Part shown: positions 1 through 12,351 of the stretch, in pieces | How the letters are laid out: each line of letters begins with the position of its first letter | Position numbering within the stretch: position 1 is the first letter of the stretch | Source: a virus | Strand: one strand, 5' to 3' | Length of the DNA: 64,000 nucleotides | Virus record (IMG/VR): IMGVR_UViG_3300037459_000226 | Location: 1-64,000 of that record | Notes under the pieces: model-generated | The model's database searches: none | The model's input: the letters and a program-made list of their open reading frames with translations, nothing else | Told to the model about the DNA's origin: nothing | Position numbers and translations under genes: made by a program

Positions 1-1572
1 GGCCCGCTTCATCTCGGTACACAAGTTGGGACATCGCTCAACCACGACCAGCAGGATTGGCAAACCATTTTCAGGTCGGATCTCAATCCAGCGACGAAGC
101 GCAAGTTCCCGACCCTTAATGTCGTCGCTGCCGTTCATAAACATCGAGCCGCGAACCTCGCATCGAAGTCCACGTTCGCTCAGCTCCACCTCGTACTGGC
201 GGCGAGGCAAGACCCCACTCGCCTGTTCGCGGAGGTTTGCACCGTGGGCGTCGATGATGAAATCCTGAAAGGCGTCGTCCCCGACGGCTGGGGCAACTGC
301 GTCCCCCCATTTACGCGCCGTGCAGTTGGGGATGTACAACTCTTTGTAGATCACGACGAAGTTGCCGAACGACGGTGGCGGCCTCGCGGCGAACAGTGTC
401 CCCGCCATCTTGGATCCGGGGTCAAACGCGAAGTAGCGGCACCAATCCGCAGGCGGCACGCCCTTCAATTCCGTGATCACCTTTTGCACGTTGTGACGCA
501 CCTTCATCCCGCGCGCCTCATCTTTGTCCTGCTGGCTCGTCAGGTTCACGATGGCCGAGTGCACATTCCTGTCGAAGTCCCCATACGCCCGAAAGCTGTC
601 GGTGGTGATCTGGCCCAACGCTCGCTTGCGGTAGACGTCTTCTCCGGCCGATCGCCAGATCCGCTCATTCTCCTCGATCGACTTCTGGGGCAGGTAAATG
701 TTGTCGTACATCGTTGCCGAGACCAAGACCGTGCGGGCCTGATACTCCGGATCGTCGGCCGCTTTCTGCATCTCGTCTTCGCCGCGCTCGATCATGTTGA
801 CGATGTCTTCCGTGCGGGAGTGCGGCATCGCGTTCCAGCGAATGAGACCCTCCCGCATCATCGTGCGCGCGACCGCCTCTTCGTACCAACCGCCTTTCGC
901 AACGTCTTCGTCGATCCCGTAAAGGTCTGCCTCGAACCCCTGGGCGTGGCCGGGATCACCCTCACTGTTGAGAGCGTACAGCACCCAGCCCGACTTCATC
1001 GTGACTCGCGAGAAAATGTCTTCGCCGCGCTTTTCATACGCCGGCTTGCCTGCCATTAAACGCTCCGGGATGATGGGACCGGCCGGCTTGGCCCTTTCCT
1101 TCCACCCCGGATACTTGTCGCCGTGGAGGCCCATCCTGACCTCGTCCGGCTCCCATGCGCGGAAAGTTCGCCAAGCATTCGTCTGTTGGTCACGGATGAT
1201 CTTGAAGGCGCCCGGCAGAAACAGATACCGGTAGATCACGCGACCAATGTGTTTCTGGCCGTAGCAAAGACACGCCGCGACGCCGTTACGACGGGGGTAC
1301 TTTCCGTAGGGATCTGTTCCGGTGAGGGCGCGGCCGAACTCGATGAACTCACTCAAGCTGCCACCGACCTGATTACCCTTCTGAAACATGCACTCTTTGG
1401 CGGTGCACGAGTGAAAGGTCTCCTGATACGGCAGAGGCTCGTACAGTCGGAGCGCGTCCATCTCCCGCTCGTCGCTCTCGCGGCACATCGCGAGGTACTC
1501 ATCAATCAGATGAGTGCTCAGCCACGAGTCCCGATCCAGTTCTTCGGGGAGGTCTTCAAGATGCTCGAACAT
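1..1572 (-). CDS. terL: Terminase large subunit (3' end runs off the window; absent from the ORF track)
   Basis: Hand translation from ATG 1572 is open to position 1. Motifs: Q motif YEPLPYQETFH, deviant Walker A KGNQVGGS, Walker B ADLYGIDED, coupling motif WNAMP, nuclease motif DWCRYFAFDPG, CPNL near the C-terminus. Confidence 0.92.
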   Translation of the reverse strand, partial: MFEHLEDLPEELDRDSWLSTHLIDEYLAMCRESDEREMDALRLYEPLPYQETFHSCTAKECMFQKGNQVGGSLSEFIEFGRALTGTDPYGKYPRRNGVAACLCYGQKHIGRVIYRYLFLPGAFKIIRDQQTNAWRTFRAWEPDEVRMGLHGDKYPGWKERAKPAGPIIPERLMAGKPAYEKRGEDIFSRVTMKSGWVLYALNSEGDPGHAQGFEADLYGIDEDVAKGGWYEEAVARTMMREGLIRWNAMPHSRTEDIVNMIERGEDEMQKAADDPEYQARTVLVSATMYDNIYLPQKSIEENERIWRSAGEDVYRKRALGQITTDSFRAYGDFDRNVHSAIVNLTSQQDKDEARGMKVRHNVQKVITELKGVPPADWCRYFAFDPGSKMAGTLFAARPPPSFGNFVVIYKELYIPNCTARKWGDAVAPAVGDDAFQDFIIDAHGANLREQASGVLPRRQYEVELSERGLRCEVRGSMFMNGSDDIKGRELALRRWIEIRPENGLPILLVVVERCPNLCTEMKRA

Positions 1573-2182
1573 TCTCGTGCGTGTCCGGCGGCTCCACGGT
1601 TCGAAAATCCGATCGATCCAGCTTGAGTACGTGGCGAATCACATCCTCTTTTTTGCTCTTTCGATCATTGAGTTCGTCATCTGTCAAATCAGACAGGGGA
1701 CGCGACGCGGCTCCGCTTTCTGTCGACTTTATGGCGAGACGGAATGCCAACTCGATATGCTTCGCGCGGATCTGACCGCCAGGCTTCGCTGCAATGTAAT
1801 TGCCCATCCACAACTGGGCGAATCCGGTAGGACCACCAACAATCGACAGGAGGGATTCCCAGAGATCGGCAACATGACTCACCGAACCGTCATGGCCACG
1901 GACGCCTGCATCCAACAGAGCATCGAGTGCCTGGATCGCCTGCTCGTCGAGTCGAGCGAGAACCTTCACGGCATGCTCTGGTAACTTTCCTCTCGCCGAT
2001 GAACAGGTCTTGCATTTTCTGTTGAGTCCTCCGCGCTTGGTCGAGTCGCGGTTGAAGAACTCGGGCGTCCAGGAAAACGTCTGCTTGCAACCGTTGCAGA
2101 ACATTTTCTCGACCGGCGGCTCAAGACCGTCATCGCGCGGAGCAACCGCTACGGCCACTTCAGGTTCGTGAGACACAGGCAT
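1556..2182 (-). CDS. Zn-finger protein directly upstream of terL; putative terminase small subunit
   Basis: CxxC...CxxC (CNGC, CKTC) followed by a helical domain; overlaps the terL start; TerS call is positional only. Confidence 0.5.
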   Translation of the reverse strand: MPVSHEPEVAVAVAPRDDGLEPPVEKMFCNGCKQTFSWTPEFFNRDSTKRGGLNRKCKTCSSARGKLPEHAVKVLARLDEQAIQALDALLDAGVRGHDGSVSHVADLWESLLSIVGGPTGFAQLWMGNYIAAKPGGQIRAKHIELAFRLAIKSTESGAASRPLSDLTDDELNDRKSKKEDVIRHVLKLDRSDFRTVEPPDTHENVRAS

Positions 2183-3704
2183 GTTTCTCCTGCTTGCGCG
2201 CGACCCAGAAGGCACCGTGCTGATCTTCCGCGTAGACCATGAAGTCTTTGCCAAACCAGTCTTCGACAGCTTCGGTGACGCTCCGCAAGCGTACGACGTG
2301 GTAGTCGTGGCCGATCATCACGCCGCCCTCGCGGAGAGCTGGCCACCACGCCTTGATGTCCGACTGAACGGCGGAAAACTCGTGGTCGGCGTCGATGAAG
2401 ACCACGTCGAATGTCGGAGACACGCGAGACATCAGAGGGCCAATATCCAGCGACGATCCTTCGTGCAGAGCCCATTTCGATTGAGGCGCACCCCCGACCA
2501 TGCGGTCGATAAACTGCTGGCGAATGTTTTCGCGTCCACCGGATTCAGTCACGAGAATGCTCGTCCAGTCTCCGGGGTTGCCCATGAAATGATCGACGCA
2601 GATGAGATGTTCGACCGCGGCAGAGTTGGCAATTTCCAATGAGGTCTCGCCGATCCAGACGCCGATCTCTGCGACTTTGATTGGGCGGTCGAGCCGCTCG
2701 GCTTCGCCATCAAGGAACTTCAGAAGGGCTGCGCGATGCTCCGGGTACATCTCGCATGTCGGCTTGTCGCCGTTGTCGTTCGGTTTGACGACTGGAGTCG
2801 CAGGTCGGTGAACCGGCAAGCCGGCGATCCCGAGCCGCTCCGCGTTGTCCGCAGGAAACTCGATCAGCCGCTCGTCGCTGTCCGGTCTCCGGATCGCGTC
2901 CTTGAGCTGGTCGCAAACCTGATCGGCGGACGTCATGTGGGGCTTGCCGACACACCAAACCTTGAGGTGTCCTGCCCAGCTCGACCACGCGATCTTGAGC
3001 GGGTTGTAGCCGAGCTGCGCAATGACCGCCTGACTCAGATTGCGAGTGTTCTGGACGTCTTCGGTCGAGCACTTGTCCGATTCAGTGTCGTCGGTCCACT
3101 CGTACCGGAAGTACGGAGGCTTGATGTAATCGAACACCCGCATGTCGTAGGCGATCAGTCCCGTCGCGGCTGCCGCAGCGTCATGCAGTCCGCCCAGGAC
3201 GGCTGCCTCTTCCCGCGTATACTGCTCAAGGCTGAACTTCGTCGGGTCGTTCATCTTGTTGCGCCACCGGAACGCGAAGATGTTCTCGTGCGGCGGGCAA
3301 CCCCCGTAGGGAGCGGCGATGACGAGCGGACCCTTGGCGTGATGCTCGTAGATCGCGTTGAAGGCCACGTCGAAGAAAGGCTGTGCGTCATCGACCTGCC
3401 CGGCGGCCGCTGCGGGGCCAAGATGACAATCGGGGGCCATGTCTGAATCGACCATCACGAGAATGTCGGCCCCGCTCTGCTGCGCCGCCTTGACGGCCCG
3501 GTTGCGCGTCATCGTGATCGGGGTATCGGCGAACGACTGCACGATAATGTCACCGTCGATGCGGTCGACGAATTCCGGCGCGGTCTTCAGGCGGAAAACC
3601 AGCGGGGTGAACCAGCGCGTGACGTCGTAGACCATCGACGTGCCGGTGCTGTTCCCCGTGTAGGGGAAGAAGGCAAACATCACGCTGAGTTTTGTCGGGG
3701 TCAC
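2160..3704 (-). CDS. Fused GT-A glycosyltransferase and class I SAM methyltransferase (Methyltransf_24-like)
   Basis: N-half: ITMTRNRAV..ILVMVDSDM (DxD), ATGL, STED. C-half: VAEIGVWIGETS, CVDHF, FDVVFIDADH, GGVMIGHDY. Confidence 0.85.
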   Translation of the reverse strand: MTPTKLSVMFAFFPYTGNSTGTSMVYDVTRWFTPLVFRLKTAPEFVDRIDGDIIVQSFADTPITMTRNRAVKAAQQSGADILVMVDSDMAPDCHLGPAAAAGQVDDAQPFFDVAFNAIYEHHAKGPLVIAAPYGGCPPHENIFAFRWRNKMNDPTKFSLEQYTREEAAVLGGLHDAAAAATGLIAYDMRVFDYIKPPYFRYEWTDDTESDKCSTEDVQNTRNLSQAVIAQLGYNPLKIAWSSWAGHLKVWCVGKPHMTSADQVCDQLKDAIRRPDSDERLIEFPADNAERLGIAGLPVHRPATPVVKPNDNGDKPTCEMYPEHRAALLKFLDGEAERLDRPIKVAEIGVWIGETSLEIANSAAVEHLICVDHFMGNPGDWTSILVTESGGRENIRQQFIDRMVGGAPQSKWALHEGSSLDIGPLMSRVSPTFDVVFIDADHEFSAVQSDIKAWWPALREGGVMIGHDYHVVRLRSVTEAVEDWFGKDFMVYAEDQHGAFWVARKQEKHACVSRT

Positions 3705-4093
3705 GAGTCGATCCTTGAAGTTCCACAGTGAAAGCAGAGTTGATTGACCATTGAAAAGTTATGAGAGCATGAGCCGTCTTCATTTTTGGGAATCATCAGT
3801 GACTCGACCACGCCAATCGTGTCGTGAGGCGCCGGAACGGGCTCCTTGTCTGGGGATCTGAGTCGCGTCAGATCCACTGTCGGACAGTTGGTCGCCGGCA
3901 GTTTCTCCAAACAAGGAACCTGAACGCGGCCATCGGCCTCCGTCTCGTCAACAAACTCAATCAGGGCGTCGCACCCTGCCCCGAACTTCCCGAGCGCAAC
4001 CTTCTTCGCATCCGGAACATCTCGCGCGTTGACGGACGCCCAGCCCGACATCGCACGCAACTCCGGTTTCGTCAATGTGCGGAACTGTGTCAT
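3701..4093 (-). CDS. Hypothetical protein
   Basis: Start/stop overlaps the downstream gene in the late operon. Confidence 0.55.
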   Translation of the reverse strand: MTQFRTLTKPELRAMSGWASVNARDVPDAKKVALGKFGAGCDALIEFVDETEADGRVQVPCLEKLPATNCPTVDLTRLRSPDKEPVPAPHDTIGVVESLMIPKNEDGSCSHNFSMVNQLCFHCGTSRIDS

Positions 4094-4097
4094 CGTT

Positions 4098-4328
4098 TCA
4101 ATATCGATTCAACAGTTTGCGACCGCTGCGTTTGCGACGTCCCATTTTCTTTTTGGGCTTGGAAGTCTTCTTTCGCCTCAGCCGATCGGCCAGGCTGTTG
4201 GCTGCGTTTCCCACTGGCATGTCTGGCAAGCTCATTGGGGCGGTTGGAAAGTGTGCGTGGACGAGTTCCGGGTCGTCGATCACGGGCTCGCCAAGGATTT
4301 CGATGATCCTACGCGGCTTGTGAGCCAT
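4098..4328 (-). CDS. Small basic hypothetical protein (K/R-rich tail)
   Basis: AGGAG RBS before ATG 4328; tail RRKKTSKPKKKMGRRKRS. Confidence 0.5.
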   Translation of the reverse strand: MAHKPRRIIEILGEPVIDDPELVHAHFPTAPMSLPDMPVGNAANSLADRLRRKKTSKPKKKMGRRKRSGRKLLNRY

Positions 4329-4776
4329 CTGACTCTCCTGTCGGCCATGGTGGAGATTCGTCCGAAGACTCAACGGGTTGCTCGTCTTCTTCATCCGGCA
4401 AGAACTGCGACAGATATCCGCCCATCCCGGCTAGTTGGTGCCTCATCTCGCGGTAACGCACGACTGCGCGTTCACGCGTTCTGGCCTCACGAGTCAGACG
4501 GAGACGCGACGCCTCTTTCTCCGGAAACGTCTTGCCCGTCACCAAAGACAGGTCGACTGACGATCGGCTGCGCTCGTATCGCTCCAGTGTCTGGGCACGC
4601 TCGCCACCCGCCGCGACAATCTCCGCGAGTTCTTCTCGCAAATACTGCGCATCTTGCTCTGCGGCTCGCTTTGCGGCTTCTGCGGCTCGCTTTGCGGCTT
4701 CTGCGGCTTCTGCTGGCGATAGCTCGTCGCCCAAATCCACCAACAACTCAGCGGTTTCTGCATCGTTCTCTGACAT
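4309..4776 (-). CDS. Hypothetical helical protein
   Basis: AGGAGG RBS; AEAAKRA repeats. Confidence 0.6.
   Translation of the reverse strand: MSENDAETAELLVDLGDELSPAEAAEAAKRAAEAAKRAAEQDAQYLREELAEIVAAGGERAQTLERYERSRSSVDLSLVTGKTFPEKEASRLRLTREARTRERAVVRYREMRHQLAGMGGYLSQFLPDEEDEQPVESSDESPPWPTGESDGSQAA
4660..4712. repeat. 21-bp tandem repeat encoding AEAAKRA
   Basis: gcggctcgctttgcggcttct x2 plus a partial copy. Confidence 0.8.
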
Positions 4777-4806
4777 GAATTCTGCCTCCTGATTGAAAAG
4801 GCTAAC

Positions 4807-4840
4807 AAAAAAGGCGGACGGGAAACAACCCCCATCCGCC
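4807..4840 (-). terminator. Rho-independent terminator after the capsid genes
   Basis: Minus strand GGCGGATGGG-loop-CCCGTCCGCC followed by TTTTTT. Confidence 0.8.
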
Positions 4841-4878
4841 CCCGTGCAAGACTGCGACACAACCGACAAACCCGCTGA

Positions 4879-5526
4879 TCAGATTCTGATCTGCAAATTA
4901 ACGAGCAAATCTGCGTTCGTCTCCCCCGTGGTCCGTGCCGACATCGCCACCGCGATGTGATTATTCACCATCGCGTACACCTCCGTGTTGTTGAGGGTGT
5001 CCTGAACGGTGAAGTTCCCGAGGCCGCCCGCGTTCGAGTTCTGGCTCGTCGAGTTGATGGTGGACGAGACAAGTTGAGCACCAACCGCGATGTCCAGGGC
5101 GAACGCGGCACCGGTGAAAGGCGTGCGCGCAATACAGACACCTTCAAAGAGTCCCCAGAACAGGTCGTCGATGGGGACGCCGTCCGTGGGGATCGTTCCG
5201 AACGGGTCGATCAGAATCAGGCCCTTTTGTGCCTGCACGATCGGGTAACCGTCCGCTCGCTCAACGACGCTCAATCCGGCGGTCAGTTCAAACTGCGCAA
5301 GCCGCTTACCGAAGAGAACGACTCCGCTGTCATTGCGCAGACAAACCGCCGAAATGAATCGCTCGGCATTTCGATCACGAACACCACTGACCGACGATAA
5401 GACCGGAGATTGATGTTGGTAGATCATCCCCATGAAGTCGTCGTTGATCTCGTTGCTGTCGTCGTCGAGACCGCGGTACGTGGTTCCGAGCGCAAACGGC
5501 GGATTGCCCGCTGCATAAGTTGGCAT
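4879..5526 (-). CDS. Probable capsid decoration/cement protein
   Basis: Immediately downstream of MCP and before the terminator; AGGAGG RBS; G/A/T-rich beta-type sequence. Confidence 0.6.
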   Translation of the reverse strand: MPTYAAGNPPFALGTTYRGLDDDSNEINDDFMGMIYQHQSPVLSSVSGVRDRNAERFISAVCLRNDSGVVLFGKRLAQFELTAGLSVVERADGYPIVQAQKGLILIDPFGTIPTDGVPIDDLFWGLFEGVCIARTPFTGAAFALDIAVGAQLVSSTINSTSQNSNAGGLGNFTVQDTLNNTEVYAMVNNHIAVAMSARTTGETNADLLVNLQIRI

Positions 5527-5675
5527 GTCTGCCTCCTGTGGAGAGTCTGTTGGTTGCTTGAATGGGCTGCGGTAACGGGTGCTTACCCCGCTCGACTGCA
5601 CATGTCATCGCCCGCCGCATTGCCGGGCAGCCGTCAAAGCTCGTTCTTCTGTCCGCCGAAACTCGCCGTCATCAA

Positions 5676-6803
5676 TTACGCAACGGTTTCGAACTTCAGC
5701 ATGTTGCGCGGCGTGCCGAACTTCAGGTTCGACAACGTGTAGACGACCGCGTTGTAGGCTTGGGTGAAGATGTCGTACACGGGGCCTTCAGGAGTCAGGA
5801 AATCACTCTCCCGGCAGCGCATCTCGACATCGTTGTAGTTCATCCCGTATCCGGTTCCCGTCGGGACACCGGCCTCCCAAGACACCTCGACGCCATCGAA
5901 GTTGATCACCTGGCGGAAGCCGAAGTTCGGCAACGAGTAGGCGCCCGCCCCGCGCCCGATGATGAGCCGCTCCTTGTCGTCGAGGACGTTGAGCAAGACT
6001 TCGTATTGGTCACGCGCGAGAAAGATGTTGGTGATCTGCGCATTCTGCGAGGCGTTCCGCTGACAGGTGATGATGCCGTAGCGCAGCGCTTCGTCGAGTG
6101 CGGATGCAAACGCCGTGTGGGCCAGATGGACGATAATCGGAGTCCAGAAGTCAAACTGGCTGTCAGCGATACCGTCCGGCCAGATGGCACCGCTGGCGTT
6201 CTCGCCGCCGTGAGCCGCGCCCAACTCGATGTTGAGACCGGCGTAGGTGCCCTCCGGGAAAGCCACCTTGTCGGCGGCGTTCACCGAGCGCGAAGTTCCA
6301 TCCGTGATGTTGACGGTGTTGCCGCTGTGCTGGAACACGGAATCGAACCCGTGCCAGAACTTGGAGTTCGCGCTCGTCTCGCCGTCGATGTAATACTGGC
6401 GCCCGAGTGCGTTCTGCATCGAACCGGTCAGCCGACCCGTGAACCCATTGAAGACGTTGATGATCGCTTCGGGTCCGCGGTTGGCCAACAATTCCGCTCG
6501 ATAGATCGCGTCGGTCGTCTGGTAGCCGCGGTACGGCAGGCTCGCGGTGTCCCAGATGTTCGTCTGGGCGAAGTTGCGAACCGTGCGGCCCGTATTTCCT
6601 TCGACATCGTGGTAACGAAACTGGACCGGCCAGTCGAAACCGTTGCCCCCGAGAGACTTGAGAATGCGTCCGGTGGCTTCGAGCAGCGCACCCATTTGGT
6701 AATTGCGAACCATCGACGGTTCGACCTGCCGGATGTGCTGGGCGAGCGTGGTGTGCAGCGGACGCTGCCAAGCAACCGGATCGTACCCCTTATAGGTCGT
6801 CAT
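5676..6803 (-). CDS. Major capsid protein (HK97 fold)
   Basis: 375 aa after a scaffold-like gene; spine-helix-like segment ending YYIDG; GF...INFDGVEV..E.GVP.G.GY; C-terminal SNL..G.PR. Confidence 0.85.
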   Translation of the reverse strand: MTTYKGYDPVAWQRPLHTTLAQHIRQVEPSMVRNYQMGALLEATGRILKSLGGNGFDWPVQFRYHDVEGNTGRTVRNFAQTNIWDTASLPYRGYQTTDAIYRAELLANRGPEAIINVFNGFTGRLTGSMQNALGRQYYIDGETSANSKFWHGFDSVFQHSGNTVNITDGTSRSVNAADKVAFPEGTYAGLNIELGAAHGGENASGAIWPDGIADSQFDFWTPIIVHLAHTAFASALDEALRYGIITCQRNASQNAQITNIFLARDQYEVLLNVLDDKERLIIGRGAGAYSLPNFGFRQVINFDGVEVSWEAGVPTGTGYGMNYNDVEMRCRESDFLTPEGPVYDIFTQAYNAVVYTLSNLKFGTPRNMLKFETVA

Positions 6804-6824
6804 GCTTTGGTCTTTCCTTCAAGG

Positions 6825-8417
6825 TCAGATTGGCAGGCCGGCCGCCTGCATGTTTTGAATCAGCAAATTGCCGGCGTCCAAATGCTGGTTTTGGGGAACC
6901 ATCGTCGGGTTTTCCGGAGCCGGGAAGCTGCCCCCTCGATCCGGTTGGTACGTTGCCAGGAACTCACGTTTGCGCGCATCGGCAGTCTGATCCAGTAAGG
7001 CCTGCGCTTGCGGATTCGGGTACGAGACCGGAGCGGGGTAGTTCGCAGGCGCTGGATATCCGGAGGCCGTCAACGGGCCCGTCGGCGGCGGGGGGGTCAG
7101 ATGTCTGAAATCAGTCGCCGGTAATGCTTGTGCCGGTGGCGCGGCTGGCGCGTGTCCGTTGCCGTTCGCCGGTGCTGGTGCGCCGGTTTCATTCGTGAAT
7201 TTCGCCATCGCGTAGTCCCAGGCATCCTGCGACCCGAGACCTTGCTTTTCGAGATAGTCGACATGCCCAAGGATCTGTCGACCGGCCGGGCTGACGACCC
7301 GCTCATTCGTCAGCGGGTCAATCGCGACCTGTCCCGTGCGAGGATCTTGTTGGAACAACAGCCCGCCGTGCTCGTCCGCGATACCTTTCTCGAACGCATC
7401 GAAGTCTCGATCGGCGAGAGCCTGCTTAACCATCTCGCTGACCATCGGCATCACGGTCTGCTTGATGATCGGCGGCAGAACTTCTTGAGGGCGCTGCACC
7501 AAGTTTTCCGCCCACGCATCGATGTAAGACTGTCTGGAGTCGAATGCGTGCTGGAGTTCAAGCGGCGTTCCGGTCTTCCACCCGAATGTTTTGCCATCGG
7601 GATCCATGACTCGTTGTCGGCTGACGGCGTGTTCGTCCAAGGCCGGCGGATTCCACCACGAATCCTGCGGAACTCCCGCTTGGGGCGCGGCAAACTGCTG
7701 TTGCGGCGCGACGGCCTGTACTCCGGGCTGCGCAACGCCTTGCGCGACCTGCGCCGCGCGCCATGCCTGAAATGCCGGGTCGCGTATCAGGCTGTGATGA
7801 TCGGCGGCGGTTTGTTCCATCGGTTGAAGACGCTGAACCTGATCGGTCAACTGCCGGTGTTGATCTTGTCCGGTTTCAAACGCCTCCAAAAGCCTTTGAA
7901 CGCCATCCGCGTCGTTCGTGATGTTCGTGAAACCAAGACCGGCGAGCCGATCCACAAACTGGGAGGCAGGGACCGGCCCACCGGTTGCCGGTAGCGACGG
8001 CGCGGGCGGCGGTGTCTGTCCGGGCGGAACTGGCGCAGGCGGCGCGGACGGAACTCCCTGTCCTGGAACCGGCTGATAGGTTGGCTGCCCGGCCACCGGC
8101 TGCGTCGGCTGCGCGGCGGGCTGGAGTGGCGGCTGAACTTGAGCGGGACCCAGCGGATTCGCCGCCGGATACCCTGGTTCCGGCGCCGTGGGAGCAGCGA
8201 TGCCTACGCCGAGAAACTGTTCAAGACCACCCTCTGCGGGCGGCGCCGGCGCAACGCCCGGCATCGGTCCGGACGGCATGCTCGGCTGAGTGAGGGACGG
8301 TACAACAGGCGACGGGGTGTACTGCGGGGCAGCGGGCGCAAGGGGAGCGGCGGGGGGCATGAGGGCAGGCTGCAGGGCCTGAACGGGCTGTGCAAAGACC
8401 GGCTGATTGGTTGGCAT
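6825..8417 (-). CDS. Probable capsid scaffolding protein (P/A/Q-rich)
   Basis: Low-complexity and helical; directly upstream of MCP; GGAGG RBS before ATG 8417. Confidence 0.7.
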   Translation of the reverse strand: MPTNQPVFAQPVQALQPALMPPAAPLAPAAPQYTPSPVVPSLTQPSMPSGPMPGVAPAPPAEGGLEQFLGVGIAAPTAPEPGYPAANPLGPAQVQPPLQPAAQPTQPVAGQPTYQPVPGQGVPSAPPAPVPPGQTPPPAPSLPATGGPVPASQFVDRLAGLGFTNITNDADGVQRLLEAFETGQDQHRQLTDQVQRLQPMEQTAADHHSLIRDPAFQAWRAAQVAQGVAQPGVQAVAPQQQFAAPQAGVPQDSWWNPPALDEHAVSRQRVMDPDGKTFGWKTGTPLELQHAFDSRQSYIDAWAENLVQRPQEVLPPIIKQTVMPMVSEMVKQALADRDFDAFEKGIADEHGGLLFQQDPRTGQVAIDPLTNERVVSPAGRQILGHVDYLEKQGLGSQDAWDYAMAKFTNETGAPAPANGNGHAPAAPPAQALPATDFRHLTPPPPTGPLTASGYPAPANYPAPVSYPNPQAQALLDQTADARKREFLATYQPDRGGSFPAPENPTMVPQNQHLDAGNLLIQNMQAAGLPI

Positions 8418-8531
8418 TGTTCTACCTCCGGTCAATGGGTAGACTGCCGCCTGTCAAAGAAAGGTGCGACTTCTTCCGATTTCTTCCGGTTTCGCATGAC
8501 TGCTGGAATCACAAATAATCACGTCGACCCA

Positions 8532-8744
8532 ATGGCTCTCCTCAACACGGAGACGGTTGTGACGATGGATCAGTTGGGTCGTCGAGTGAAGCGGAGCGTC
8601 AAAACAATCATGTTGTGGATGGTGGCTGGCCGGAAGCGCAAGCGTGACGGCAAGCTCTGTTCGCTCCAGTTCGTCGATGAAGGCGGACGGATTACTACGA
8701 GCATGCAGGCCTACGAGCGCTTCATCCGGGAGTTGAACGAGTGA
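8532..8744 (+). CDS. DUF1580-like small winged-HTH (excisionase-like) protein
   Basis: SVKTIMLWMVAG...L....EGGRITTSMQAYERFI matches the DUF1580 pattern typical of Planctomycetes. Confidence 0.7.
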   Translation: MALLNTETVVTMDQLGRRVKRSVKTIMLWMVAGRKRKRDGKLCSLQFVDEGGRITTSMQAYERFIRELNE

Positions 8745-9001
8745 GTGAACGACAACAGATCAGCGCCATCGAGCGCGACTGCGGTTACTGCCCGATCATG
8801 GTGACGTACAAGTATCGCTGTTCGTATTGCGACTGCGTGTTCGACAAAGAAGAACAGGAGGGTCGCAATTTTATCGGCTTCCTCAGTCCGGGGTACGCTC
8901 AGTCCATCGGTCATCTCCCGGTTGGGTGGAGTTGGTACGGGTCGAGCCTCGTCTGCCCGAAGCACGAGATTGTGGTTTACGATCGGGAGTTGAACGGATG
9001 A
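8741..9001 (+). CDS. Small Cys-rich hypothetical protein
   Basis: CxxC motifs; GTGA coupling to the upstream gene. Confidence 0.6.
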   Translation: MSERQQISAIERDCGYCPIMVTYKYRCSYCDCVFDKEEQEGRNFIGFLSPGYAQSIGHLPVGWSWYGSSLVCPKHEIVVYDRELNG

Positions 9002-9168
9002 GCGACGATGTCGAAGAGCGCGGCCGTCAGGTCAAGGCGCGTCAGGACTTCACCTTGTATGCCAGCACGGTGATGAACCCTGATTTGTCATGCGTGACGC
9101 TGCCAGAGGACGAACCACCTGGACCGTTTCGAGATCAGTTGATCCGTGACGGACTCATCCGGATCTGA
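8998..9168 (+). CDS. Small hypothetical protein
   Basis: ATGA overlap with the upstream stop. Confidence 0.55.
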   Translation: MSDDVEERGRQVKARQDFTLYASTVMNPDLSCVTLPEDEPPGPFRDQLIRDGLIRI

Positions 9169-9309
9169 CATCCGGGTTGACAACCCACTGCGGTCGTGAA
9201 AGGATGCGGTCCGCTTCGGATCAAAGCGAAACACCAAAGCGCGCCAGCGCAACGGTTTGAAAGGCCACACGTTGATCCGAGCGTGTGGCCTTTCTCTTTG
9301 GACTCAGCG

Positions 9310-9522
9310 ATGTCCGGCACATCGAAACAGCTTGTCTTCCCGCCGCGGCCCGACCGCGAGCTGACGGAAGAGGATGTCGAGTTGCTCCAGACGGTCGATC
9401 CGTATGGGATTCTCAATGCGGGGAAGATCCCTGATTTCGATCCCGAGACAGAGAAACTCGTCGTGACATACACTTTTTCCCTGAATCCGCGATCCTACGG
9501 AGTTTACAGACGTGCCGACTGA
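9310..9522 (+). CDS. Small protein resembling the MCP C-terminus (about aa 321-371)
   Basis: EDVEL..PDFDPETE..VVTYTFSLNPR vs MCP NDVEM..PVYDIFTQ..VVYTLS..TPR; start could be as far upstream as 9196. Confidence 0.55.
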   Translation: MSGTSKQLVFPPRPDRELTEEDVELLQTVDPYGILNAGKIPDFDPETEKLVVTYTFSLNPRSYGVYRRAD

Positions 9523-9808
9523 CAGACGGGGATTCCTGACGGCCCTTGTGGCCGCTCCACTGGCCGTTGCGGTCGGCGTCAAGCTACCGGTGGCACCGAT
9601 TGCCGACGGGTTGTACCCCGGCTTCTTTGGCCCGAAGCTCGCATACGACCCGGACCTCTGGCCGATGGGAGATTCGGACGTCTGGTATGACCCCTACGAC
9701 TTTAGCGAACCGATTCTGCTGGACGTCGAGCCGTGCAACGGGGAATGGCTCGCCACAATTGAGTCCAGCGGCGTCCTCAAGGAGCTGATGAATGCCGGCC
9801 TCACGTAG
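9512..9808 (+). CDS. Tat-signal protein carrying an MCP-like segment (aa 180-245)
   Basis: TDRRGFL plus hydrophobic stretch; DGLYPGF..LWPMG..D..YDFSEPILL vs MCP EGTYAGL..IWPDG..D..FDFWTPIIV. Confidence 0.7.
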   Translation: MPTDRRGFLTALVAAPLAVAVGVKLPVAPIADGLYPGFFGPKLAYDPDLWPMGDSDVWYDPYDFSEPILLDVEPCNGEWLATIESSGVLKELMNAGLT

Positions 9809-10055
9809 AGACTTCCTGAGAGCAACGGTCTTCGGGCCTATCGCCGCTGCGGTGGGGATCAAGCTGGCTCCGGCGGGCCGGGTGTTCCAGAAGGTATTGA
9901 AGTTGCAGGCCATGACGGCCTCAACCGCCGGCGTCGGGCGTCAGTCGGCACCGTTGACGGTGGCCGAAGTGGAGCGAGCGTTTTCCTTGAATCCCGGCGT
10001 CTTTCGCCTGAAGTATCACGGCGAATTCACGTTCCCCAAGCCGGATCGCATCTGA
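9792..10055 (+). CDS. Tat-signal small protein
   Basis: SRRDFLR plus h-region; AGGAG RBS; shares FSLNP with the 9310 product. Confidence 0.7.
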   Translation: MPASRRDFLRATVFGPIAAAVGIKLAPAGRVFQKVLKLQAMTASTAGVGRQSAPLTVAEVERAFSLNPGVFRLKYHGEFTFPKPDRI

Positions 10056-10294
10056 TGCCTGAAATCAGCCGACGCGGCCTGTTCCGAGCCTTGATCGCGG
10101 CCCCGATTGCGGTGGCTGTCGGGAAACCGCTGCTGGCGACTGGCGACTGGCCGGTCAAGTGGACCGTCGGGAAAGTGACCAGGGTCGCCAATCTGTCGAG
10201 AGAAGAAATCTGCGCGCTGTATGAACAGAAGATCGACAGAATCGTGGCGAGCATGCAGTCATGCTTCAATCAGGATTTCACCGATCAGTCTTGA
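10055..10294 (+). CDS. Tat-signal protein carrying MCP-like segments (aa 57-60 and 107-137)
   Basis: SRRGLFR plus h-region; DWPV; ANLSREEI..RIVASMQ vs MCP ANRGPEAI..RLTGSMQ. Confidence 0.7.
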   Translation: MPEISRRGLFRALIAAPIAVAVGKPLLATGDWPVKWTVGKVTRVANLSREEICALYEQKIDRIVASMQSCFNQDFTDQS

Positions 10295-10309
10295 CAGGAC
10301 GCCGCCCTG

Positions 10310-10513
10310 ATGACCGACCGTCGTTATGACTGTCCCAAGTCAATTCAACGCATGCTCGTCAGCCGCAGAGCCGAAGAAATCGTGAGGAGCCATCGGTTGC
10401 TCCATTTGCTCCAGGCGAAGGGGCGAATCCAATTCTCGACCTGTAGCGACTCAACGCTCCGCGGGTTTGCCGGCGAGAAAGGTCTTGACAGGAAGCCGGC
10501 GGCGTCGCAATGA
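10310..10513 (+). CDS. Small protein resembling the MCP N-terminus (aa 7-50)
   Basis: YDCPKSIQRML..IVRSHRLLHLLQAKGRIQFS vs MCP YDPVAWQRPL..MVRNYQMGALLEATGRILKS. Confidence 0.65.
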   Translation: MTDRRYDCPKSIQRMLVSRRAEEIVRSHRLLHLLQAKGRIQFSTCSDSTLRGFAGEKGLDRKPAASQ

Positions 10514-10520
10514 TGCTTGA

Positions 10521-10598
10521 CGTCCCGTCAGACAACACAATCTAGCCGCCCATTTGGGTGAAAAAGACCGCATTCTCTGACGGGACGCGGTCTTTTTT
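10521..10598 (+). promoter_or_regulatory. Terminator/anti-terminator-type leader upstream of the HNH genes
   Basis: CGTCCCGTCAGA (10521-32) is complementary to TCTGACGGGACG (10576-87), which lies in the loop of hairpin AAAAAGACCGC/GCGGTCTTTTTT; TTGACA at 10485. Confidence 0.6.
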
Positions 10599-10615: not shown

Positions 10616-11098
10616 GTGTCGGCCAAGGCGAAGAAACCGAAGCGGCGGTCAAAAACTGCTGCCCAACTATGGCGAGAGCGTCATCGTCGGGTAATCAACA
10701 ACCTCGGACCGACCGACATGGTCGAGCGCCGCAGAACACTCTCGGATCTCGGCTTCGACAACTACCGCCATTTCCTGATGAGTGCAGGCTGGAAGGCCGT
10801 TCGGGAAACCATGCTGAATCGCTGGAGTCGAACCTGCAAAGGCTGTCGTCAACCGGCAATCCAAGTGTTTCCCCAGGATTACAGCACCGCCACATTGAGT
10901 GGGCAGCAACCGAATAAACTCGTCGTCTGCTGCAATCGCTGCCATTCCTTCATCTTTGGAAAACGCACTCGTTACAAAGTGAAAATCGACCACGAGTGGG
11001 GAATCCAGTTCTGTCGGTGTGGTGCGCTCGCTCCGTTTAAGAAGATTTTGTGTTCCAAATGTCGTCGGGAGGCTCGGCGTGTCTCAGAACTTCGTTAG
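10616..11098 (+). CDS. Degenerate HNH-endonuclease-like protein with C-terminal Zn finger
   Basis: Y..FL.S..W...R....CKGC..A.QV(FP instead of HH)..Y....CNRCH. Confidence 0.65.
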   Translation: MSAKAKKPKRRSKTAAQLWRERHRRVINNLGPTDMVERRRTLSDLGFDNYRHFLMSAGWKAVRETMLNRWSRTCKGCRQPAIQVFPQDYSTATLSGQQPNKLVVCCNRCHSFIFGKRTRYKVKIDHEWGIQFCRCGALAPFKKILCSKCRREARRVSELR

Positions 11099-11919: not shown

Positions 11920-12351
11920 ATGCCCATAAGGAAGAAACGCCCGAAGGGGAGGATCGTGAAAAAGGTCGTCAAAAAAAAGCGATCGGCGGCCGGCAACGGG
12001 CAGCCGAAACAAGATCCCGATTCAACCAGGGTTCCTCTTGAGTACACATTCAGCGAGAACATTGTCCCCGTGTATTCAAATGGATTTGTTGTTCGGTACG
12101 ATGCGGGAATGTTTCACCTCTTCTTTTTCAATAGCCGTGGCCCGATCATCCTTGAAACCGATAGTCCGAAAAAGCGACAGGAACAGATTGCGAAAGTCGA
12201 TGTGGTCAAATCCAACTGTGTGGCTCATCTTGTGGTGACTTTGGATCAGGCCCGAAAGGTCATCTCCGCGCTGACGAGGAATTACGAGAAGTTCGTACAG
12301 ACGTTACCGGATGATGTGCGAGTGGCGTTGGAATCCGGTGGAGATGAATAG
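11920..12351 (+). CDS. DUF3467-like protein (element passenger)
   Basis: PVYSNGFVV....FHLFF....VAHLVVTLDQARKVISALTRN pattern. Confidence 0.65.
   Translation: MPIRKKRPKGRIVKKVVKKKRSAAGNGQPKQDPDSTRVPLEYTFSENIVPVYSNGFVVRYDAGMFHLFFFNSRGPIILETDSPKKRQEQIAKVDVVKSNCVAHLVVTLDQARKVISALTRNYEKFVQTLPDDVRVALESGGDE

Follow-up and report, generated by a model that had tools for sequence, protein, structure and literature searches.

The question raised by positions 9512-10294 of the virus record IMGVR_UViG_3300037459_000226 (IMG/VR) is why three small open reading frames (ORFs) in succession should carry the same twin-arginine leader, and what that leader is joined to. The DNA analysed, referred to here as the window, is 64,000 nucleotides long and is taken from the start of a 75,541-bp record that bears direct terminal repeats. 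The three ORFs, designated o1, o2 and o3, were read in an initial annotation of the window as signal peptides of the Tat (twin-arginine translocation) system fused to fragments of capsid-like protein. We find that they are genes, that the leader is probably an export signal of the Tat type, and that it recurs in other phages, some of which join it to the end of their own tail fibre; the likeness to capsid protein is moderate at best. The three products are laid out as follows, a slash marking a plausible cleavage point.

9512-9808, + strand: o1, 98 aa, GTG start; leader approximately residues 1-31, cargo about 67 aa
9792-10055, + strand: o2, 87 aa; leader residues 1-28 (ASRRDFLR ... KLAPA/G), cargo 59 aa
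10055-10294, + strand: o3, 79 aa; leader residues 1-28 (ISRRGLFR ... KPLLA/T), cargo 51 aa with 2 Cys

Three coupled genes with a common leader

The initial annotation had described three consecutive ORFs of 79-98 aa beginning with an arginine pair, and these are present on the plus strand with ribosome binding sites or coupled starts. The putative binding sites are GGAG, 9 nt before o1, and AGGAG, 8 nt before o2, while the start of o3 is coupled to the stop of o2 through a TGATG overlap. The G+C content at third codon positions is 0.72-0.77 in o1-o3, similar to that of the large phage genes. The N-termini are MPTDRRGFLTALVAAPLAVAVG (o1), MPASRRDFLRATVFGPIAAAVG (o2) and MPEISRRGLFRALIAAPIAVAVG (o3). 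In each case the listed start is the first ATG, GTG or TTG past the preceding in-frame stop, and the arginine pair is therefore placed at residues 5-7. When all six frames of the whole 75.5-kb genome were searched, o1-o3 were the sole ORFs starting with an arginine pair and a hydrophobic core. A looser filter, from which the hydrophobicity test was omitted, additionally returned an Arg-rich ORF of 474 aa, and shuffled genomes gave an average of 1.3 matches each. o1, o2 and o3 are real, translationally coupled genes. The publicly available gene call for the 75.5-kb record places the start of o2 at an internal GTG, which gives a 67-aa product without the leader, so genes of this kind are easily missed by automatic annotation.

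Similarity among the three proteins is limited to the first 25 residues (BLASTP E = 7e-5 for o1 and o2, 1e-3 for o1 and o3). Beyond the leader they differ widely, the cargo of o1 being very acidic (pI 4.1, charge -11), that of o2 basic (pI 10.5) and that of o3 intermediate at pI 5.0. Only this phage was returned when word-indexed searches were run with o1, with o3 and with an alignment of all three proteins, and scanning the alignment over viral contigs also gave only the same phage. An exhaustive phmmer search with o1 against 1.84 billion representatives added nothing except four tandem-repeat artefacts produced by summed scores. For o2, a cluster look-up gave only two other copies, an identical one on another assembly of this phage (75,444 bp) and one on a 12-kb contig that differs by a single residue. 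All three cargoes are thus orphans in the searches run, and are mutually unrelated.

The leader has a short n-region (MPxx, 4-5 residues), the motif RR-x-F-L, a core of 12-17 residues composed of Ala, Val and Pro, and then a lysine. The Tat consensus S/T-R-R-x-F-L-K/R is met at residues 3-12 by TDRRGFLT in o1, ASRRDFLR in o2 and ISRRGLFR in o3. All three also match the default pattern of TatP, RR.[FGAVML][LITMVF], which covers 97% of the TatP training set (PMC1182353). The uncharged cores, rich in Ala, Val, Gly and Pro, measure 17, 13 and 12 residues in o1, o2 and o3, respectively, and in every copy Lys is found at residue 24; a basic residue in the c-region after the core is typical of Tat signals (PMC1182353). 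In o2 and o3 the core is bracketed by Arg and Lys and has a central Pro. Cleavage would be plausible near residues 28-31, at APA/G in o2 and LLA/T in o3, the site in o1 being less clear.

Among approximately 19,000 NCBIfam models the Tat signal model TIGR01409 was the top match of o1 (16.4 bits) and o2 (16.6 bits), just below its cut-off of 16.7. The Pfam model TAT_signal (PF10518) gave 12.8 bits with o1, its cut-off being 22.7, and no match with o2 or o3. In the ESM-Atlas, o1 and o3 lay near clusters of the periplasmic Fe-hydrogenase small subunit, of TAT_signal and of the Rieske Tat signal. Both lists were headed by the same two unnamed clusters, one of which is a virus-only cluster of 66 members with proteins of 98 aa. 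Since o1 and o3 share the leader alone, it is the leader that these neighbours reflect.

Across the 24 aligned leader codons the proportion of synonymous differences is 0.67-0.84, ie saturated, and that of non-synonymous differences 0.30-0.38. The arginine codons differ wholly between the copies (AGA CGG, CGT AGA and CGA CGC). Saturation at synonymous sites, coupled with retention of the arginine pair in spite of codon turnover, shows that the leader is under selection at the protein level. The initial annotation had proposed that loss of the arginine pair in homologues would count against a Tat signal; the pair is kept in all three paralogues with entirely different codons.

Several observations weigh against the Tat assignment and favour the general secretory (Sec) pathway, in which case the leaders would be short Sec signal peptides whose arginine pair serves only by accident as the basic n-region. 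None of the three proteins passes either curated Tat cut-off (with TIGR01409 the result is borderline), and no TIGR01409 match was reported for o3. As the cargoes lack homologues outside this phage, conservation of the arginine pair was judged in three paralogues only (3/3). An n-region of 4-5 residues and starts of the type MKRR- or MPxxRR are compatible with Sec too, and the cores are rich in Ala, Leu and Val. Proteins that match the arginine-pair pattern are often Sec-dependent, 13 cases being known from B. subtilis (PMC1182353). The shortness of the n-region, together with the frequent Sec dependence of such pattern matches, makes a Sec route conceivable. Against it, the entire consensus is kept rather than charge alone, the arginine pair survives full turnover of its codons, the lysine after the core is of the Tat-typical kind (PMC1182353), and the nearest neighbours in feature space are Tat substrates. 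The claim of a Tat signal peptide therefore fared reasonably well: consensus, TatP pattern, best NCBIfam match, ESM-Atlas neighbours and retained arginines all point to it, with scores that fall 0.1-0.3 bit under the cut-off. We regard the leader as probably a Tat export signal, and a Sec signal as unlikely.

Three other classes of small protein were considered and set aside. There is no lipobox Cys near the leader, as lipoproteins would have. The cores of o2 and o3, at 12-13 residues, are too short to act as membrane-spanning anchors. Precursors of ribosomally synthesised and post-translationally modified peptides were represented by one weak lanthipeptide match (E = 0.03), and no maturation enzymes are encoded nearby.

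Leader genes in other phages

IMG/VR was scanned with three degenerate DNA patterns, encoding MPxSRRxFL, RRGFLxALxAAP and RRxFLxALxAAP. Members of the class were defined as ORFs of about 60-230 aa (most of them 60-150 aa) which start 1-5 codons before a leader of the type RR-x-F-L-x-A-L-x-A-A-P and continue into unrelated cargo. Approximately 16 further small ORFs (62-225 aa) in other viral contigs fit this description. o1 is an exact fit to RRGFLTALVAAP, and o2 and o3 are variants of it. When o1-o3 are included, the first charged residue past the core is Lys or Arg in 12 of 19 members. Two of the other leader ORFs exceed the TIGR01409 cut-off, at 17.3 and 21.3 bits. The n-region in other phages is often merely MK or MN.

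In the first five contigs checked the leader genes lie about 0-3 kb from genes for TerL (terminase) or portal protein; of those in later contigs, two immediately precede a tail fibre gene and another two adjoin tape measure genes. No tandem array of leaders was found at the other loci examined. At L031, on contig G001, there are two leader ORFs about 4.4 kb apart (from 4728 and from 279, both on the minus strand, beginning MARRGFLKAL... and MLSRRQFFIAL..., respectively), and this is the only other locus examined with more than one. A homologous pair of Tat-type proteins of 96-99 aa occurs on two related contigs (L022, 10135-10434, plus strand; L011, 1414-1704, minus strand) with TIGR01409 scores of 17.3 and 15.5 bits; the L022 gene lies among lysogeny genes, between ORFs for a putative anti-repressor and a putative integrase.

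Three members of the class carry a copy of part of a virion protein encoded by the same phage:

L079: mini-protein at 5105-5341, + strand; copies the last 34 residues of a 940-aa tail fibre (phrog_5616; 5630-8452, + strand), z = 13
G002/L032: mini-protein at L032 6465-6707, - strand; copies the last 30 residues of a 1481-aa tail protein (phrog_2589; L039 621-5066, - strand), z = 10.2
L082: mini-protein at approximately 10730-10978, - strand; copies 34 residues of a 1185-aa central tail fibre J (phrog_31; 7023-10580, - strand), z = 6.3

All three, whose contigs are unrelated, copy the extreme C-terminus of the central tail fibre of their own phage, and in two of them the mini-protein gene is directly upstream of the fibre gene. 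A fourth member, L055, is intermediate: it scores z = 4.3 with the product of the next gene downstream, a tape measure protein, in an alignment that partly overlaps the leader. The other ten members tested in the same way gave no clear match to a virion protein, most of their contigs being incomplete. o1-o3 thus belong to a recurrent class of phage leader proteins, some of whose cargoes copy parts of their own virion. The joining of such a leader to part of one of the phage's own virion proteins is real in other phages that were checked, where the part is a tail fibre C-terminus and not the capsid-like fragment that the initial annotation had proposed for o1-o3.

The setting of these genes could also suggest that the leader is an intracellular hydrophobic tag, which would target its cargo to the assembling head or tether it to the membrane for assembly, and that nothing is exported. 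Nine other leader genes with identified neighbours, together with the three described here, do border on head, packaging or tail modules, and some of the cargoes copy virion proteins. The leader nevertheless has the textbook n-h-c layout of a signal peptide with RR-x-F-L, and by the positive-inside rule the cargo would be placed outside. It matches no known capsid-targeting or scaffold family, and o1-o3 are part of a rightward operon of small genes opposed to the head genes. We consider it rather improbable that the mini-proteins are not exported at all, and very unlikely that the leader acts as a tag of this kind.

Cargoes and the capsid protein

The proposal of capsid-like cargo was examined with the phage's own major capsid protein (MCP) as the reference. 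Two small genes that flank o1-o3 were included in the comparison.

5676-6803, - strand: MCP, 375 aa; matches phrog_9953, major head protein, over residues 12-159 (E = 9.6e-10), and phrog_14242 (E = 0.006)
10310-10513, + strand: dn67, 67 aa, leaderless, directly downstream of o3
9310-9522, + strand: upstream small gene, 70 aa (ATG at 9310) or 108 aa (GTG at 9196); its stop overlaps the start of o1; no leader

MCP has no relatives in the PDB or in the phage database, and a scan of viral contigs with it found only the same phage. Ranks are among 65 proteins.

The clearest result was obtained with dn67. With standard gaps its Smith-Waterman score against MCP was 44, with p = 0.00085 from 20,000 shuffles (0.001 from a Gumbel fit), z = 5.3 and rank 1; with long cheap gaps z was 5.7, again at rank 1. 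Residues 2-41 of dn67 align to the N-terminal residues 2-47 of MCP with 17 of 46 positions identical, the alignment beginning at residue 2 on both sides. In appearance dn67 is a diverged copy of the N-terminal arm of the capsid protein. The o3 cargo gave p = 0.035, z = 2.1 and rank 5 with standard gaps and p = 0.0005, z = 4.2 and rank 1 with long cheap gaps. When four gap settings were combined with two ways of cutting off the leader, p ranged from 0.002 to 0.03 and the rank from 1 to 5. With long cheap gaps the o3 cargo is collinear with MCP residues 36-137, with deletions at loops, in four blocks: LLATG aligned to LLEATG, DWPVKW to DWPVQF, a short TVGKVTR to NTGRTVR, and one block of 32 residues. 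o1 aligned to MCP residues 206-225 at p = 0.036, z = 2.6 and rank 1 with standard gaps, falling to p = 0.18 and rank 11 with long cheap gaps. No likeness was observed for o2 (p = 0.96 with standard gaps, rank 63 with long cheap gaps) or for the upstream gene (p = 0.69, rank 51).

By these alignments o3 and dn67 have a moderate likeness to capsid protein, o1 has a marginal one and o2 has none. The initial annotation had found clear MCP-like cargo in two of the three proteins and a weak likeness in o2. Of the two, o3 keeps a moderate resemblance and o1 a marginal one that depends on the gap scheme, neither of them being clear; the likeness of o2 was not borne out.

The order of the pieces was also considered. 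A decayed copy of the capsid gene was rejected, since o3 (MCP residues 36-137) stands upstream of dn67 (MCP residues 2-47), ie the pieces are in the wrong order. Structural models were of no help: single-sequence AlphaFold2 models were unusable, with predicted local distance difference test (pLDDT) scores of 42 for o1 and 31 for MCP, and the Atlas model of o3 was poor (pLDDT 0.54).

Another account is that o1-o3 are ordinary orphan morons, small secreted or membrane proteins with a duplicated signal peptide, and that their likeness to capsid is due to chance. A number of results tell against a capsid origin and in favour of that account. BLASTP of the cargoes against all 493 ORFs of the genome gave MCP at E values of 3-7, and non-coding frames scored equally well. 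The PHROG and Pfam capsid profiles found no match in o1-o3, nor did the PHROG profiles in dn67. Neither o2 nor the upstream gene has a capsid signal, and o1 drops to rank 11 once gaps are chained. The gap settings were chosen post hoc, with the data already seen. Values of z above 5 were also obtained for pairs that appear unrelated, namely o2 against the product of 11920-12351 (5.7) and against the N-terminus of a glycosyltransferase/methyltransferase-like protein (GT/MT; 5.2). On the other side stand the rank of MCP (1 for dn67 in both gap schemes and 1-5 for o3 in four), the start of the dn67 alignment at residue 2 of both proteins, and the unmistakable tail fibre ends carried by three other members of the class. 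We consider chance likeness quite possible, if not what we would expect.

Some further similarities of the cargoes were seen within the genome. Over its C-terminal 51 residues the o2 cargo is 39% identical to the N-terminus of the GT/MT protein (2160-3758, - strand), with a pairwise E value of 6e-4. This similarity is probably due to chance, though some of the capsid matches are no stronger. The pentapeptide FSLNP occurs near the C-termini of both the upstream gene (9310-9522) and o2 (VVTYTFSLNPRSYGVY and VERAFSLNPGVFRLKY, respectively), and a 143-aa protein at 11920-12351 (+ strand) has YTFSEN in a similar context, with z between 3.8 and 5.7.

The initial annotation had gone on to suggest a mechanism, in which the leader docks at the Tat receptor and the capsid-like cargo, bound to a partner such as an immune sensor or a capsid subunit, either carries that partner out of the cytoplasm or blocks the translocon. 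Co-export of bound partners by Tat is established (Rodrigue et al. 1999, as cited in PMC13673990), and o3 and dn67 do show some likeness to the N-terminus of the capsid protein. We hold this suggestion, for which nothing observed here speaks, to be highly improbable: two of the three cargoes are without credible capsid likeness, there is no sign of any binding partner, the best look-alike, dn67, has no leader, and the clear copies in other phages are of tail fibre tips, which act outside the cytoplasm.

The reading that we tentatively prefer, at a little less than even confidence, is that o1-o3 are mini-proteins consisting of leader and cargo which are exported to the envelope, where they may be mimics of virion parts that act on related phages. 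A Tat-type leader of 28-31 residues, joined to unrelated cargo of 51-67 residues, would be made from one coupled operon. The host Tat system or, failing that, the Sec system would carry the mini-proteins across the cytoplasmic membrane, after which they would be released or kept anchored in the envelope. By analogy with the tail fibre tips of other phages and with gp15 of HK97, a mimic of a virion part located in the envelope could interfere with, or sense, incoming related phages. Here we infer that export may take place, that its route may be as described, and that the products may act as mimics and in exclusion.

Some further points count against this preferred reading. Capsid protein is not known to enter the periplasm during infection, and for that reason a capsid mimic in the envelope would be without obvious logic. 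In two other contigs the capsid protein bore no likeness to the phage's own cargo (G002, HK97-type capsid protein, z = 0.8; G004, candidate capsid protein, z = 0.8-0.9). The phage itself does not encode tatA or tatC. Extended further, the reading would have many phage lineages sharing one device, in which a minimal Tat-type leader is joined to pieces of the phage's own virion to give envelope mimics that exclude, sense or decoy other phages or host sensors; in this phage it would be a cassette of four genes (o1-o3 and dn67), built partly from capsid. This wider view we hold to be doubtful.

Genomic setting and comparison with known systems

The rightward operon of small genes to which o1-o3 belong starts in a divergent gap beside the head genes, MCP being transcribed in the opposite direction. 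The remaining features of this region are:

6825-8435, - strand: Pro/Gln-rich protein, 536 aa; precedes the capsid gene
8491-8519, + strand: putative promoter-like site, TTCGCA-17-AATAAT, from a consensus scan only; at the head of the small-gene operon
8139-8744, + strand: ORF, first in the small-gene operon
8741-9001, + strand: Cys-rich protein, 86 aa, in the small-gene operon

On the minus strand (1-8435) the order of genes is the 536-aa Pro/Gln-rich protein, the capsid protein, several small genes, the GT/MT fusion and a large ORF at 1-1572. The last of these, a candidate terminase, runs off the start of the record and has no match in Pfam; were it terminase, the capsid genes would lie ahead of terminase, which is an unusual order. 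The sole sequencing run containing the stretch is a DNA run from a marine sediment metagenome, probably the source sample, and no RNA dataset was listed among the runs that contain it. The best genome match of the phage DnaB, at 34% identity, was to a metagenome-assembled genome of Victivallis. That match was considered too weak for Victivallis to be named as host.

What the window itself yields is modest: the leader in a clean tandem arrangement, cargoes that are orphans, and no more than moderate evidence of capsid origin. It is unusual in its tandem triple and in dn67, a leaderless look-alike of the capsid N-terminus. Phage-encoded Tat substrates barely figure in the searchable literature. 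A 2026 review of Tat contains no mention of them (PMC13673990), and our literature searches found no paper on phage-encoded Tat substrates, on Tat-tagged capsid fragments or on mini-proteins in which a leader is joined to part of a virion protein from the same phage. Tat signals are known, as are phage accessory proteins directed to the envelope; their joining to pieces of the phage's own virion appears not to have been described, no paper having been found. If such leaders do send virion-derived pieces into the envelope, they would represent a class of phage accessory function that is both new and widespread and that follows a simple, testable rule: the leader is joined to a copied part of the phage's own virion. 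Superinfection exclusion, masking of receptors or entry factors, and decoying of host sensors would then be possible roles.

Compared to the Tat signals represented by TIGR01409 and PF10518, the leaders of o1-o3 have the same RR-x-F-L(K/R) motif, the same moderately hydrophobic core of Ala, Gly, Val and Pro, a basic residue next to it, and small residues at -3 and -1. They differ in length, with an n-region of only 4-5 residues in a signal of about 28-31 in all, compared to a mean of 37 in TatP (PMC1182353), and in scores slightly under the curated cut-offs. They also differ in being encoded by a phage and in having as cargo tiny orphans that lack any cofactor motif.

Tab, of the Pseudomonas prophage JBD26, and Tai resemble the proposed mini-proteins in so far as they are described as small phage or prophage proteins whose targets are structural proteins of competing phages (PMC10884400; PMC11364771). 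The comparison is one of published descriptions only, and in these the action is a different one, a block of tail assembly in the invading phage (PMC10884400).

The phage proteins that act in superinfection exclusion at the envelope include Imm and Sp of T4, SieA of P22 and Llp of T5. Of particular relevance here is gp15 of HK97, a small moron protein of the inner membrane whose gene adjoins that of the tape measure protein and which brings about a tail-dependent block of DNA entry (PMC3594210). It has no sequence relationship to o1-o3. gp15 is a YebO-like membrane protein with neither a Tat-type leader nor a copy of a virion protein, and o1-o3 adjoin head genes, not tail genes; a role in exclusion is here suggested by analogy only. 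What gp15 and o1-o3 would have in common is that both are small phage accessory proteins aimed at the envelope, and several of the leader genes in other phages also flank genes for the tape measure protein or tail fibre.

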